DNA of 64,000 nt from a virus (lineage: Duplodnaviria > Heunggongvirae > Uroviricota > Caudoviricetes). Below are positions 12,601-18,600 of the stretch, one piece after another (the stretch's first letter is position 1; each line of letters begins with the position of its first letter). The DNA lies in IMG/VR virus record IMGVR_UViG_2703718806_000008. One strand, 5' to 3'. Made by a program: the position numbers.

Positions 12601-15600
12601 CATTTTAGAATGGTTCAAAGGGGACATTACAGCTTGGTGTTAACAATAGCCTGCTTCTCCTTGCCTTTCGGCACGTAAGAGGCTAACCTACATGTGTCTG
12701 GCATGAAATTGGCCTCAGATTAATGTTAAGCGTCTTGCAGGACGCGTAATGTTAACTGGGGCTTTTCTCTACCTGCCGTTGGTGTTCGTGCCCGAGGCAG
12801 ATAGCCTCAAGCACCCGCAGTCATTCTACTTAACTAAGATTTCCCCGCAAACCGTTTTTGTCCAGCACAGTAAATATCCAACTAAACCAATGGAGTTCGC
12901 TGTATTTACCGCCAGTATTCAATGCACATGACCGCCATGAACACCCCTAAAAAAGGGCATTTATATATCCAAATATTAATATCAAAACATCAACTTTTTC
13001 CATATACCTTGCTGTGAAGATGATGGGCATACATGATGCGAACAACCAGAACGCAACAAACAAAAACTGCAATGCGTTTTTCATTATTCCTCCTACAATC
13101 AATGTGCAATTACATTTAAACACACCTCAATTTGGCCGGACATATAAATATCTAAACCAGAAAAAATCACTTACATAGCGTTACAAACTCTTTAGTCTAA
13201 AGGTTCATCGTAAAACATTCCCCATACTTATCAGTCCGTTCCGCGCCAGGTAGCTCATTGCCTTATCTGGCAACCTGTAATCAGGTTTCCGCTTTTTCAG
13301 TTGGCTGGTCGTTTAACCGACATAGTTAACCCATTAATCTAGTTGCCGGATGTTGGTGGATTTTCGCGTTTTAGTTGTTCATAAAAGTGCACAGCTTTAA
13401 CCAATTCTTCTGATGTAACCGGGACTGGTGAGGCAGTGAATAAGGCCTGAATTTGATAGTTCGGCCTGTCGTTACAATCCTCTTTTTTCGGTACATATTT
13501 CCAGTCACCAGACCACTACTTCCCCTGAAAGTCCGTAACGCCTTTTTTCACGTAGCGATATCGCCATGTCACTGGTTTTGCTTGCCCCGCCGTTTCATGC
13601 CCTTCCTGATAATTAATCTCGCTCATTCATCGCCCCACTCATCACAATATGCTTCGACCGGAGTTTTTCCCGCTTCATAGTCATCACGCTAGGATTCGAC
13701 ATCAGCAGCACTTCCACCGCGTAACTCACCATAGTCCATTAATAGTTCATCCCGCTCTTCAAAACTGATGTTATATTTAGCTGAACAAAAATCAGCCACT
13801 TTGTTCTTCCTCATCGTCTTTTATTTCGTGGTATGAGTAATTGCAGTAGTTAAAGAAAATTTCTTATGCTCCGTCATGAATTTCATCAGGTGTTGCGTCA
13901 TCGTCCACTTCGAATACATCCTCAAAATCTCCACCAGCTATTCCCGTTTCAATAATAATTTTGAACTTTCGCATTTCACTACCGCCCTTTCGGGCGGCCT
14001 CCTGATGTTCTGAGGGTGCAGAAATCCATCCGGTTAAGGATTAAGTTTTATTTACAGAACTGAATTTAATTATTCAGATATACGTATCTGTAACCTTACG
14101 AATCTACTCACTGGATGCCTCTTTCATAAAAATAATCCAGTGGGTTTTATCGTTTTTTCCCTGTTCGTTGACAGATAACAGGCTTTCTATCTGTCAGTGC
14201 CAGAATCTGGCTTACCGGTATTTGCGTTTCATTCCATTAAAAAATCAGAACGCCGTGCGGCCTCAACACCCGAAAAGCTTCTTTAAATCTCTGTCGCAAA
14301 TCATCACGCCAGGCATCTTTATTCAGCCGTCCATATTTCTTTCCCATCCAGGCGTTATCACCAACACGCTCAAGATGCGGAGGGTCTAATACAACCATCG
14401 AAAAAGATGCGTCTGCAAATGATAATGCACGAAAATCTGCGATAATGTCAGGGCTGATAATCAATCGTCTCCCATTGCGTAATGTGTATCCTTCTTTTCT
14501 GATATCGCTAAATATCGCCCGTTCGTCAGACTTATCGAACCAGAACATGCGGCTGCCACAGCACATATCAAGAATGGTTGCCGGTGCACTCACTGCGCCA
14601 CGTCCTGAAAATTACCCTGATAGAAAGCCAGTATGCGCTGCATAACTTCGCTCTTCCGGCACTCGCGACAGATTATGTTTAGGCGACTGTCGTAGCGACG
14701 TATTTCTCCGTCAGGTGATGACCAGATAAGGTCCGGATCAACCACAGCAGGTTTCTTCACCTTTGCCCTCGAGAGTTTTTTGCGGGCGTTTTGCCAGTCC
14801 TTACGCGCCTGTTCAGAGGGGAATAACCCGTAGCCGGAGTTGTATACATCGCCACTGGCTACCAGCTCTCTGGCAAGAACGCTCATCAGATATCTAGTCG
14901 CACCTGTTTTAGCTTCCAGTTGCCGTAACGTCTCACGGCCGCTCTGGCGCACGAGTTCCACCACCTGCCATTTAATTTTTTCCCGCTCTTCTTGTGTAAA
15001 AACTTTTGCCACAAGTCCCCCTTAAAATTACCTCATGACCTGAAATCAACACTTATCCTCTGAAACCAGGCGGAATTTCTGTATCCGGTTCAGAAATATG
15101 ATTAACACAACGCTGTACAGGTGAACGTCCCAGGCGGATGACCAGTTCGTCCCATTTTTCGCGGAGCTTTGACGGGCTCATGATGTTTTTTACCCAGAAT
15201 GGATCTCGCTGAACCCGACCAAACATTTCGCAAATTTGTCTGTGGCTTCTGCCATCCAGCATCCGCATTGTGCGCACGTCATTGGCCCAGGCAGTCCAGT
15301 TAGGCTCTTTTGGTCGCATGATCTCGCCATCATCACTGGCTGCCTGTTCGTAGAGACCCACGATCCGCCCCCAGATCCACTGCGCACACGCCAAATCCTC
15401 CCTGCTACCCCACTGGCGTTTTTTCGCACTAAACACAACCGCGTCGGAGTTCCGGGTTAAAAAATCCTGTTCAGTCGTCTGCGGGTCCGGTTGCGAAGCT
15501 TCCGGACGAAAAGTGTTTTTATTCTCTGTAGTAATCTCTGTTGTATTCTCTGTAAGATCATCAGGCCATTTTGACCCGATGACATTGGGTCGTTTTGAAC

Positions 15601-18600
15601 CAATGGAGCGTTTCATTTTGACCTCTTCTATCGTGTCATTTTGACCTGATGGAGCGGCGCATTTTGAACCGATGGATTCGCTCAATTTGCCACCATCTAA
15701 AAGCTCGCTCCCATAGTTGATCGTGTAGAAATTGGTCATATCGCGCTTTGATTTATTGAGCTTTTCACAACGCAAAAGCCCCAGCGTTTTCAGACTTGCA
15801 AACGCGCGCTTTAACGTTGACTCTGACCAGAATGGGAACTGTTCCAGCCATTGTTCCGTTGTGTTATAAATCCAGCGAACACCATCACATTCCATGCCGG
15901 AGTTGGTATCTCTCAACCAGTAGTGCAGTTGTTGCAAAACAATGGCTTCGTTTAAGCCAATTTTCATTGCCAGCTGCGTGTTTATAACCAGTGGGCGTTC
16001 AGCAAAAAGAAGGCTCATAATTCCATCCAGCTTTTTGTTGGTATTGCTGTCGATACGCAAGCTTGAAAGCAATTGCTTTTTCTATAAGTTCGTCAGTTTC
16101 ACGATCCACTACGGCAGGATCAGCAAAAAGCAGTCCGGACTCCACCACATCGCCATATTCTTTGTTTAACCCGGCGATCATGCACGTGATGCTTTTTCCG
16201 TCAGTAATTTCACGATACAACCTGAAATCACTAATCCGGATAGCCTCCATAATCGCAGGCACTAGCGCCGTGAACTTTTCACGCTTATCCCTGGTGTCGA
16301 TAGCCTTCCAGCGTTCGAATATCTTCACTCGATTAACACCAAGCGCTCGCTGATCAACCGCGCCACCTTCATCTGTGACACGCTGAACATCGATGTTCGG
16401 GCGCTCTTTCAAAGCCCAGAATGCTTCAGTGATTAATATCGTCGCCTGCTCCTGTGTCATTCCTGGTCGACATATCCAGGCATCCAGAGCCTCACGAGCC
16501 TGTTCAGGAGTGATTTTCATTGTTCAACCGCCCCGCCCGCTTCGTCTTACGATATTCATCATAAACTTTGGGATCATACTGAAGCTCCCCGCCAGATGCC
16601 TCCTGTAGACGCATCGCGCGACCTTCGGGAACTAAATCCCCTTTCCAGCTATAAAGCGAAGCCAAACGAATACCTGCTGCTTGTGCAAGTTTTGTTTTTG
16701 AACCGAAATACAAAAGAGCGTCAGTTTTAAGCATTTAAAACACCTTTATTGTTAGTCATAACTAACAAGATAGATGTTAACAAAAACATAGTCAATACGA
16801 TTTAGCATTAGCTAACTATGGAAACAAAAAATTTAACTATCGGCGAACGCATCAGGTATCGTCGGAAAAACCTCAAACACACCCAAAGGTCTCTTGCTAA
16901 AGCCCTGAAAATCTCCCATGTGTCTGTATCACAATGGGAACGGGGTGATAGTGAACCTACAGGGAAGAACCTTTTTGCCCTCAGCAAAGTATTGCAATGC
17001 TCACCAACATGGATTCTATTTGGCGATGAAGACAAGCAACCAACACCACCTGTTGAGAAGCCAGTTGCCTTATCCCCCAAAGAACTAGAGCTCCTTGAGC
17101 TGTTTAATGCACTGCCAGAATCAGAACAGGATACCCAGCTCGCCGAAATGCGAGCTCGAGTAAGAAACTTCAATAAACTCTTTGAAGAATTACTAAAAGC
17201 CCGTCAGCGGACAAATAAAAGATAACATCATCAATGAGTTATCTTTTACCACATCAATTATGTTAGCTATAGCATACAAAATCACTTGACCGATATGTTA
17301 GTCATGGCTAATCTTGTTTGCATCAACACACCGCACGGTGTTCTCAGCAAACAGTTCCGCTACCCCAGCGTTAAGGGGAAATGAGGTCAGCATGGATACT
17401 ATCGATCTTGGCAACAACGAATCTCTGGTGTACGGCGTGTTTCCAAACCAGGACGGTACGTTCACCGCGATGACGTATACCAAAAGCAAAACGTTTAAAA
17501 CCGAAAATGGTGCCCGTCGCTGGCTGGAAAGAAACTCAGGTGAGTGATATGGATTTCGACACAATCATGGAAAAGGCTTACGAAGAATACTTCGAAGGTC
17601 TTGCCGACGGCGAAGAAGCTCTCAGCTTCAACGAATTTAAACAGGCGCTTTCCAGTTCGGCAAAATCTAACGGCTGATAAGCGAAACAGCACCGCGAGGA
17701 ATCAGTATGCAGAAACGAGAACCCGTCATCATCGCGCCAGACTATACCGATGATGAACTTTATGAGTGGATGCGCCAGAAAATTAATGCAGCGCAGGATC
17801 TGAAATGGGCCAATGAAGCCAGGGCTAAGCAGGCTGAAAATCTGTCCGCTCTGGAGCAGGATATCACCAATCTGGAAAAAGCAGCGGCATTAAGCATTGC
17901 CAGAATGATTACATACCCGCGTTAATAGCTAACCAACGAAGCTAAGGTTGGTAATTAAGGAGTTCTCCACGGGTGAGGTGGAGTGCGTGCGCCGGACACG
18001 GGTGAGCATCCGGCACTGACAGTTTACTGAAAGGATATTTCCCTGAAAAGTCAGACCATAACGCGAAAGCGCACGGCGAGGTAGCTGGTTCATAGATAGC
18101 CTGTCGTTAAATTTTCGTCGACCGTGCGCTTCCGGTTGTGGCAACCCGCGAAATGGTGCGGCGGTAAGTATGGCGGGGTTATTTCTTCCCCGTTGAGGAC
18201 ACCGGGTTGTCAGGTTGACCATACGCTTAAGTGACAACCCCGCTGCAACGCCCTCTGTTATCAATTTTCTGGTGACGTTTGGCGGTATCAGTTTTACTCC
18301 GTGACTGCTCTGCCGCCCTTTTTAAAGTGAATTTTGTGATGTGGTGAATGCGGCTGAGCGCACGCGGAACAGTTAAAACCAAAAACAGTGTTATGGGTGG
18401 ATTCTCTGTATCCGGCGTTAATTGTTAACTGGTTAACGTCACCTGGAGGCACCAGGCACTGCATCACAAAATTCATTGTTGAGGACGCGATAATGAAAAC
18501 GTTATTACCAAACGTTAATACGTCTGAAGGTTGTTTTGAAATTGGTGTCACTATCAGTAACCCAGTATTTACTGAAGATGCCATTAACAAGAGAAAACAA

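Follow-up and report, generated by a model that had tools for sequence, protein, structure and literature searches.

That iterons can lie inside the gene for the initiator that binds them has been textbook knowledge since lambda. In lambda the origin sits in the middle of the O gene, between the parts encoding the DNA-binding and the C-terminal domains, and the annotated record gives four iterons 20–24 bp apart, each a dyad around CAAAA, at nt 349–433 of the 900-nt gene. Here we describe a locus of this layout in IMG/VR virus record IMGVR_UViG_2703718806_000008 (Caudoviricetes), of which a stretch of 64,000 nucleotides (the window) was analysed. An equivalent mid-gene position in an initiator gene is occupied in the window by six iterons spaced by 23–24 bp, at nt 327–455 of 966. 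In both systems the iterons have an A-rich centre, are about two helical turns apart and have an AT-rich, purine-skewed tract on their downstream (transcription) side. The iteron sequences themselves are unrelated (GGTCAAAATGACC here and TCCCTCAAAACGAGGGA in lambda), and the ACAAAAGA units of the lambda tract are weakly similar to the 12-mer ACAGAGAWTACW of the tract described below. We conclude that the array and its initiator very probably form a lambda-type pair of origin and initiator in a Qin-type lambdoid (pro)phage, with the replication origin located inside the gene of its own initiator. An earlier note on this DNA had proposed lambda-like iterons within an initiator gene, paired with an intact initiator, and this proposal is strongly supported by arrays in distant relatives, by co-variation of the iteron arms with initiator residue 67, by the AT-rich tract and by the occurrence of the gene in deposited phages.

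The iteron array and the AT-rich tract

Tandem direct repeats at 15560–15700 were picked up by two tools, a repeat finder, which gave a 23-nt spacing, and Tandem Repeats Finder (TRF), which placed the array at 15593–15676 with a period of 23 and 3.7 copies. In register, the array comprises six copies at 15564–15692 on the minus strand, from which the initiator open reading frame (ORF; 15053–16018) is also read. The iteron core is 13 bp long with the consensus GGTCA-AAA-TGACC (GGTCAAAATGACC on the coding strand), in which inverted arms of 5 bp each flank an A-rich centre, and successive cores are spaced by 23, 23, 23, 23 and 24 bp. The elements of the putative origin are as follows.

15053-16018, minus strand: initiator gene, an ORF of 966 nt and 321 amino acids with its ATG at 16018; the origin lies in its middle third
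15680-15692, minus strand: iteron 1, TGGCAAATTGAGC, degenerate, 9 of 13 positions as in the consensus, in 23-nt register with the others
15657-15669, minus strand: iteron 2, GTTCAAAATGCGC, 10 of 13 positions
15634-15646, minus strand: iteron 3, GGTCAAAATGACA, 12 of 13 positions
15611-15623, minus strand: iteron 4, GGTCAAAATGAAA, 11 of 13 positions, right arm degenerate
15588-15600, minus strand: iteron 5, GTTCAAAACGACC, 11 of 13 positions
15564-15576, minus strand: iteron 6, GGTCAAAATGGCC, 12 of 13 positions, with flanks CATCG and TGATG that stretch the dyad to about 23 bp
15518-15553, minus strand: three tandem 12-mers, ACAGAGAWTACW, encoding the peptide TENTTEITTENK (repeat finder, TRF with period 12, and pattern search)

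The consensus is a perfect dyad, of which single copies retain two to four of the five arm pairs, and CCATC/GATGG-like flanks widen the symmetry to about 23 bp. In relatives from Citrobacter and Enterobacter, the slot of the degenerate iteron 1 is filled by a well-preserved copy. Five repeats at 15566–15680, 22–26 bp apart, had been described in the earlier note; repeats are indeed present at these coordinates, but they number six, and the measured spacing of 23–24 bp replaces the broader range. The repeats are not a chance occurrence, because the 16-mer CATTTTGAMCNRATGG, with up to two mismatches, finds four matches in the window, all of them within the array (0.83 expected window-wide), and because a phased-repeat score, defined as the count of 9-mers recurring at 22–24-nt phasing, reaches 5 at the array and at most 3 in the other 490 of 491 scoring windows.

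We considered whether the repeat might merely be a repeated peptide linker of IGSK type between two domains, with no role at the DNA level. IGSK is encoded three times, and the region does encode a low-complexity linker between two folded domains. The six DNA copies, however, occupy all three reading frames (2, 1, 0, 2, 1 and 1, respectively) and yield four different peptides, with GGKLS, PSGQND and EEVKMK in place of IGSK in the remaining copies; the 23-nt period is not a multiple of three; and the palindromic arms co-vary with a residue of the DNA-binding domain, as set out below. As the iterons are kept at the nucleotide level across three reading frames, they are a DNA element and not a peptide repeat, and the earlier statement that the repeats encode the IGSK motif is correct for three copies only, the others encoding different peptides in other frames. 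A role as peptide linker is highly improbable, and we rejected it as contradicted by reading frames, phasing and co-variation.

The three 12-mers come directly after iteron 6, and their GC content of 0.33–0.35 is the minimum of the gene, compared with 0.55–0.65 in the stretch of the gene just downstream. Nearly all iteron-bearing relatives carry two to five ACAGAGAnTAC-like 12-mers right after the iterons, and the nucleotide sequence of the tract is preserved over a range that extends from E. coli to Staphylococcus, Bacillus and lactobacilli (loci L093-L168 and L005-L007). It encodes (T-E-x-T)n in a constant frame, so the reading frame cannot tell protein from DNA constraint here. We therefore turn to codon choice, which was compared in 31 loci with GC contents of 34–62%. 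The threonine codon is ACA in 80 of 80 cases within the tract against 19% elsewhere in the same genes, and the glutamate codon is GAG in 79 of 79 against 50%. A scan of viral contigs with the alignment of N-terminal domains, used for within-species variation only, gave 80 near-identical E. coli copies; in the 42 close copies where the gene could be located the 321-residue ORF is intact throughout (42/42), and the tract shows zero substitutions while surrounding positions vary. The fixed synonymous codons and the lack of substitution within E. coli indicate that the 12-mer tract is constrained as DNA. By its position, its low GC content and the analogy to lambda it is likely to be a DNA-unwinding element, and the 12-mer may be more than AT-rich DNA, namely a sequence-specific element for unwinding or loading that either a conserved region of the initiator or a conserved host factor recognises.

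The initiator and its match to the iteron arms

The same 966-nt coding sequence is annotated in RefSeq as a "hypothetical protein" (WP_000054512.1). The product matches phrog_391, "replication initiation O-like", with E=1.8e-91 (residues 17–321 on profile positions 11–298 of 298), and no Pfam family was matched by either of its domains; NCBIfam returned the DnaT-like tail only. Annotation of this gene and its homologues is inconsistent, with "hypothetical protein", "Primosomal protein I", "DNA replication protein O" and "transcriptional regulator" all in use (L170 20001-20966; L002, L003). The protein and the residue considered below are laid out as follows.

15704-16018, minus strand: N-terminal winged-helix DNA-binding domain, about residues 1–105
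15818-15820, minus strand: codon of Ser67, at the start of the predicted recognition helix
15137-15580, minus strand: lambda-O-like C-terminal region, residues 147–294
15056-15115, minus strand: C-terminal tail QRCVNHISEPDTEIPPGFRG, the last 20 residues, DnaT-like

A protein search with the N-terminal domain returned mostly fragments without Pfam domains, which served as the alignment for structure prediction. The AlphaFold2 model of residues 1–115, built from 63 homologues, has a predicted local distance difference test score (pLDDT) of 85.8 and a winged-helix topology, in which a helix of residues 66–78 takes the position of the recognition helix and is followed by a beta wing. In this model the domain resembles the winged-helix fold of RepA_N and DnaD (DnaD-NTD-like), a resemblance that came from a fold search and not from sequence profiles; the profile of the 63 homologues gave only weak PadR-like matches among PDB sequences (E>=0.07). 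The family of the lambda O N-terminal domain, PF04492 (Phage_rep_O), did not match the initiator even at E<=10, whereas lambda O scored 5.7e-36 in the same search. The C-terminal part, in contrast, is homologous to that of lambda O (BLASTP of residues 147–294 against lambda O residues 135–270, 34% identity, E=1e-26). The description of the gene as O-like in the earlier note thus applies to its C-terminal half, the N-terminal domain being outside PF04492.

A comparative scan with an alignment of five N-terminal domains, at one genome per species, returned 80 loci, 69 of them non-redundant, that span Enterobacterales, Pseudomonas, Acinetobacter, Comamonas, Bacillus, Staphylococcus, lactobacilli, clostridia and others. 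Phased copies were counted at 22–24 nt in the 260 nt after the N-terminal domain, with control windows taken from the same loci. At least three phased copies were found in 44 of the 69 non-redundant loci compared with 3 of 976 control windows, and at least four in 29 of 69 compared with none of 976. The earlier note had made its proposal depend on the repeats being present in related prophages, and phased arrays recur even in distant homologues. A literature search for the motif strings returned unrelated primers only.

The iteron arms differ between lineages but change jointly, so that the dyad is preserved: they read GGTCA/TGACC in E. coli, Citrobacter, Edwardsiella and Staphylococcus, GGACA/TGTCC in Hafnia phage yong2 and some Pantoea, GGGCA/TGCCC in Erwinia phage PEp14 and Pseudomonas, and GTGCA/TGCAC in Comamonas and Acinetobacter. 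Among 52 distinct N-terminal domains the third base of the arm is predicted without exception by the residue aligned with Ser67.

Residue 67 Ser: third arm base T, 20 of 20
Residue 67 Asp: third arm base G, 15 of 15
Residue 67 Lys: third arm base A, 8 of 8
Residue 67 Asn: third arm base C, 2 of 2
Residue 67 Arg: third arm base A, one case
Residue 67 His: third arm base C, one case

The mutual information between residue 67 and arm base 3 is 1.70 bits, a value reached by none of 10000 permutations, and the Ser–T pairing recurs in Enterobacterales, Gilliamella, Staphylococcus, Bacillus and clostridia. This residue–base co-variation is the strongest non-experimental evidence that the repeats are the cognate sites of the initiator, and it is almost certain that the iterons are sites bound by the phage's own initiator. 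Four loci (L089, L090, L135 and L160) lie on contigs that look mis-binned: contigs 100% identical to the E. coli prophage gene occur in metagenome-assembled genomes labelled Veillonella parvula, Bacillota and Collinsella, and a homologue with GGACA iterons lies on a 2.6-kb contig assigned to a "Micrarchaeota archaeon".

A mosaic joint was observed within the initiator gene at about 15484–15522. Upstream of it (at higher coordinates) the N-terminal domain, iterons and 12-mers are 76% shared with Klebsiella phages, and downstream (at lower coordinates) the C-terminal domain is 74% shared with Shigella phages SfII and SfIV, whose initiators have another N-terminal domain and other repeats (CCGTCAAAATCTGAC, period 15). 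Mosaic joints keep the N-terminal domain, the iterons and the 12-mers together, and these move as one module. Such a junction beside the tract, together with iteron and 12-mer numbers that vary between lineages, would also be expected if the repeats were neutral products of replication slippage, or recombination joints of a mosaic gene, without specific binding. Slippage would not, however, maintain 22–24-nt phasing, dyad symmetry and an exact match of residue and base across phyla, and the length of the array in E. coli is fixed, as judged from the constant 321 residues of its gene. A neutral origin of the repeats is less probable still than the peptide linker, and it was rejected on phasing and co-variation. 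Overall, the initiator combines three parts in mosaic fashion: a winged helix like that of RepA_N/DnaD, which comes with iterons and 12-mers, a lambda-O-like C-terminal domain, and a DnaT-like tail.

The C-terminal tail and the probable recruitment of the host helicase

The last 20 residues of the initiator match the extreme C-terminus of the primosomal protein DnaT. A phmmer search of PDB sequences aligned the tail with residues 160–179 of DnaT (9zbt_D, E=6e-4; 2ru8 and 6aep, E of about 3e-4), and 14 of 20 positions are identical to E. coli DnaT, including the terminal IPPGFRG, which forms the exact C-terminus of both proteins; the common ending can be written as SEPDxxIPPGFRG. The whole-protein NCBIfam equivalog model of DnaT scored 16.2 bits against a cutoff of 201, and only positions 160–179 aligned; the label "Primosomal protein I" (DnaT) on phage homologues rests solely on this 20-residue tail.

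Beside the initiator gene we found neither a lambda-P homologue nor an ORF with a Walker-A motif within 1.6 kb, and the annotation of the near-identical phage PhiR42_1 contains no P, DnaC or DnaB-like gene. The same holds for tail-bearing relatives: in 23 loci with initiators ending in (I/V)PxGF(R/K), no phage helicase loader was detected downstream. The genes that follow tail-bearing initiators are PerC-like, ParB-HTH or methyltransferase genes (fetched loci, including L089-L127), and a Pfam check of the large ORFs downstream of the tail-bearing Pantoea loci identified them as ParB-HTH or PerC-like and not as helicases. Among tail-less relatives, a lambda-P homologue follows in L097, L099 and L159 and an IstB/DnaC-like gene in L103, the one ORF of this kind that was checked, with an ORF of equal length in L104, L106, L119 and L120; some of the others have a Walker-A ORF downstream, and for many nothing was detected by this crude screen, in which the Walker-A regular expression overlooks DnaB-type helicases.

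Because no P, DnaC or DnaB-like gene lies downstream, the initiator probably recruits host DnaB–DnaC directly, and the tail would be part of the route by which it does so. How DnaT itself recruits DnaB and DnaC "remains unknown" according to a 2026 paper on preprimosome structure, which makes no mention of the extreme C-terminal tail of DnaT (PMC13377028). We tentatively suggest, as a possibility we hold with less than even confidence, that the tail could be a handle for recruiting host DnaB–DnaC and the 12-mer a sequence-specific element for unwinding or loading. If true, this reading of the tail would also point to the region of DnaT that recruits the helicase during replication restart.

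Taken together, these data suggest the following mechanism. Dimers of the N-terminal winged-helix domain would bind the six 23-bp-phased dyad iterons, with Ser67 at the start of the recognition helix reading the third base of each arm. The resulting nucleoprotein complex would open the adjoining AT-rich tract of three 12-mers, an opening that transcription from a pR-like promoter may assist, and host DnaB–DnaC would probably be recruited directly by the lambda-O-like C-terminal domain together with the DnaT-like tail. By this route the origin would be expected to fire in this strain.

The Qin-type element and its relation to known systems

Positions 1–23126 of the window align with positions 24108–1013 of Escherichia phage PhiR42_1 at 99.3–99.8% identity. 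PhiR42_1 is a 48.7-kb record with a full lambda-like set of head and tail genes. The prophage in the window extends beyond its left edge, which falls in the region of the terminase genes. The closest complete genome has the element at the Qin locus next to rspB, with terminase and portal genes on its left. The initiator gene with its origin is found in the deposited phages PhiR42_1 (99.8%), HannyBb (98.2%) and mEp460_ev081 (96.8%), the last of which, from infant faeces, is described as "a functional temperate phage" with dicB, dicF, dicAC and rem homologues (PMC10448788). Given these matches to PhiR42_1, the closest genome and mEp460_ev081, the element is a full-length relative of Qin, at least to the extent that the window and the nearest relatives reveal it, and the module for its replication belongs to a type that functions in a viable phage. 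The epithet "cryptic" applied to the prophage in the earlier note is therefore not demonstrable. The same note had proposed SOS induction as a trigger; DicA is reported to be under the control of the antirepressor Rem, with an unknown inducing signal (PMC10448788), so SOS induction may be the wrong trigger.

Several points weigh against the array being a working replication origin. Binding and firing rest on comparative evidence, and the conservation and co-variation counts are phylogenetically non-independent, though each pairing recurs in distant phyla. Two of the six iterons have one degenerate arm. A gene for a helicase loader is missing, and replication competence hinges on the presumed route of host recruitment. 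The window is without the structural half of the phage, and among the genes nearby several are pseudogenes or broken by an insertion sequence (IS), which limits the evidence for viability of the phage as a whole; a literature search gave no publication on PhiR42_1 or HannyBb. It might be that the initiator sites serve mainly in autoregulation, copy control or the exclusion of related phages, or that the origin is no longer competent here; either way, derepression would not set off replication at this site. The missing loader gene, the two degenerate iterons and the IS and pseudogenes downstream in the prophage would all fit such a role. Cloned fragments of the lambda replication region are reported to inhibit the plating of related phages (PMC3349717). 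On the other hand, the gene and array are carried by mEp460_ev081, a phage reported to be functional; the array is consistently followed by the nucleotide-conserved AT-rich tract, which pure operators would not need; and the loader-less module is present in deposited phages including SfIV, mEp460_4F5, Klebsiella phage ST147-VIM1phi7.2 and Hafnia phage yong2. We consider a role without replication unlikely, and prefer the reading of the array as a replication origin.

The initiator is the third gene of a leftward operon composed of DicC/Cro-like, YdaT/CII-like, initiator and DUF977/Ren-like genes. The neighbouring features are listed below.

16767-16795, minus strand: pR-like promoter, TTGACT-17-TATCTT, by consensus match only, upstream of dicC/cro, ydaT/cII-like and the initiator gene
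16504-16734, minus strand: DicC/Cro-like, the first gene of the operon (PF14549 P22_Cro, 1.7e-11)
15999-16520, minus strand: YdaT/CII-like (PF06254; phrog_163 CII-like, 2.6e-40), with a 20-nt overlap with the start of the initiator gene
16818-17225, plus strand: DicA-type repressor (HTH_3 and Phage_CI_repr), divergent from the replication operon
14590-15012, minus strand: DUF977/Ren-like (PF06163, 5e-29; phrog_142), directly after the initiator gene, at the position of lambda P
14237-14593, minus strand: S-adenosylmethionine (SAM)-dependent methyltransferase, after DUF977, truncated or frameshifted with an ORF of 118 amino acids, a RefSeq pseudogene in the closest genome

Transcription from the predicted pR-like promoter would pass through the origin. 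A scan of 14.9–17.3 kb with DnaA and IHF consensus sequences gave nothing besides a single DnaA-box-like match, TTTTACACA at 15001 on the minus strand, which lies outside the origin, about 50 bp past the initiator stop codon in the start of the DUF977 gene, and is probably due to chance. Rfam gave no RNA family within the origin region.

The early-right region carries an ISNCY insertion and a few pseudogenes. The ISNCY-family transposase (11230–12571, minus strand) consists of two adjacent ORFs of 310 and 123 amino acids between the replication genes and flxA; the phage record PhiR42_1 has this insertion as well, and in the closest genome the transposase is labelled partial by RefSeq. Beside this insertion Rfam identified a sok antitoxin RNA at 12645–12816 (minus strand, 99.8 bits), and the region appears to hold a hok/sok-type locus distinct from hokD. 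The DicF small RNA lies at 18267–18318 (plus strand, 76.7 bits) with dicB just downstream (about 18490–18680), as in K-12 Qin.

Some match to the initiator gene is present in 2795 of 5426 complete E. coli genomes (about half), with at least 80% query coverage in 1745. From the pair of origin and initiator one can tell which Qin-type prophages retain the capacity to amplify their DNA on derepression, and such amplification would carry dicB/DicF, relBE, hokD and the lysis genes along. The pair also gives a simple recognition rule, one initiator residue against one base of the binding site, and the relatives form a natural set of loader-less initiators for studying the recruitment of host DnaB–DnaC. 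As the layout of iterons in an initiator gene has long been known, the origin itself is unsurprising; the DnaT-like tail and the nucleotide-conserved 12-mer may be new. The value for follow-up lies in the residue–base rule, the nucleotide-fixed 12-mer and the pattern of tail versus loader.

Compared with known systems, the locus shares with lambda the operon order of cro, cII-like gene and initiator under a pR-like promoter. In lambda O is followed by P, whereas here the DUF977/Ren-like gene comes next, and lambda O is without the DnaT-like tail. With E. coli DnaT only the last 20 residues are shared, and nothing else of the protein matches. Weaver et al. are said to have found, in 2009, that in many RepA_N systems the origin is located within the coding region of rep. 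For their iterons, a published description gives direct repeats of semi-palindromic form that converge on a poly-A tract (PMC7145576). The same semi-palindromic iteron architecture is seen here as in the RepA_N initiators, namely RepA of the Firmicutes plasmids pSK41 and pTZ2162 and of the Vibrio cholerae PLE. At the level of sequence the initiator matched neither Pfam RepA_N (PF06970) nor the solved RepA chains in the PDB, and the likeness is therefore one of fold and not of family membership. RepA_N systems are, moreover, plasmid systems with a genus-specific C-terminal domain, whereas the present one belongs to a phage and has a lambda-O-like C-terminal domain. With Qin, the cryptic prophage of E. 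coli K-12, the element shares its locus next to rspB, the dicA-dicC immunity region, DicF, dicB, rem, relBE, hokD and the cold-shock genes. Most of the genes for replication, head and tail are reported to be missing from K-12 Qin (PMC10448788); the element described here, unlike it, retains its initiator and origin, and the relatives closest to it have retained terminase, portal and tail genes as well.

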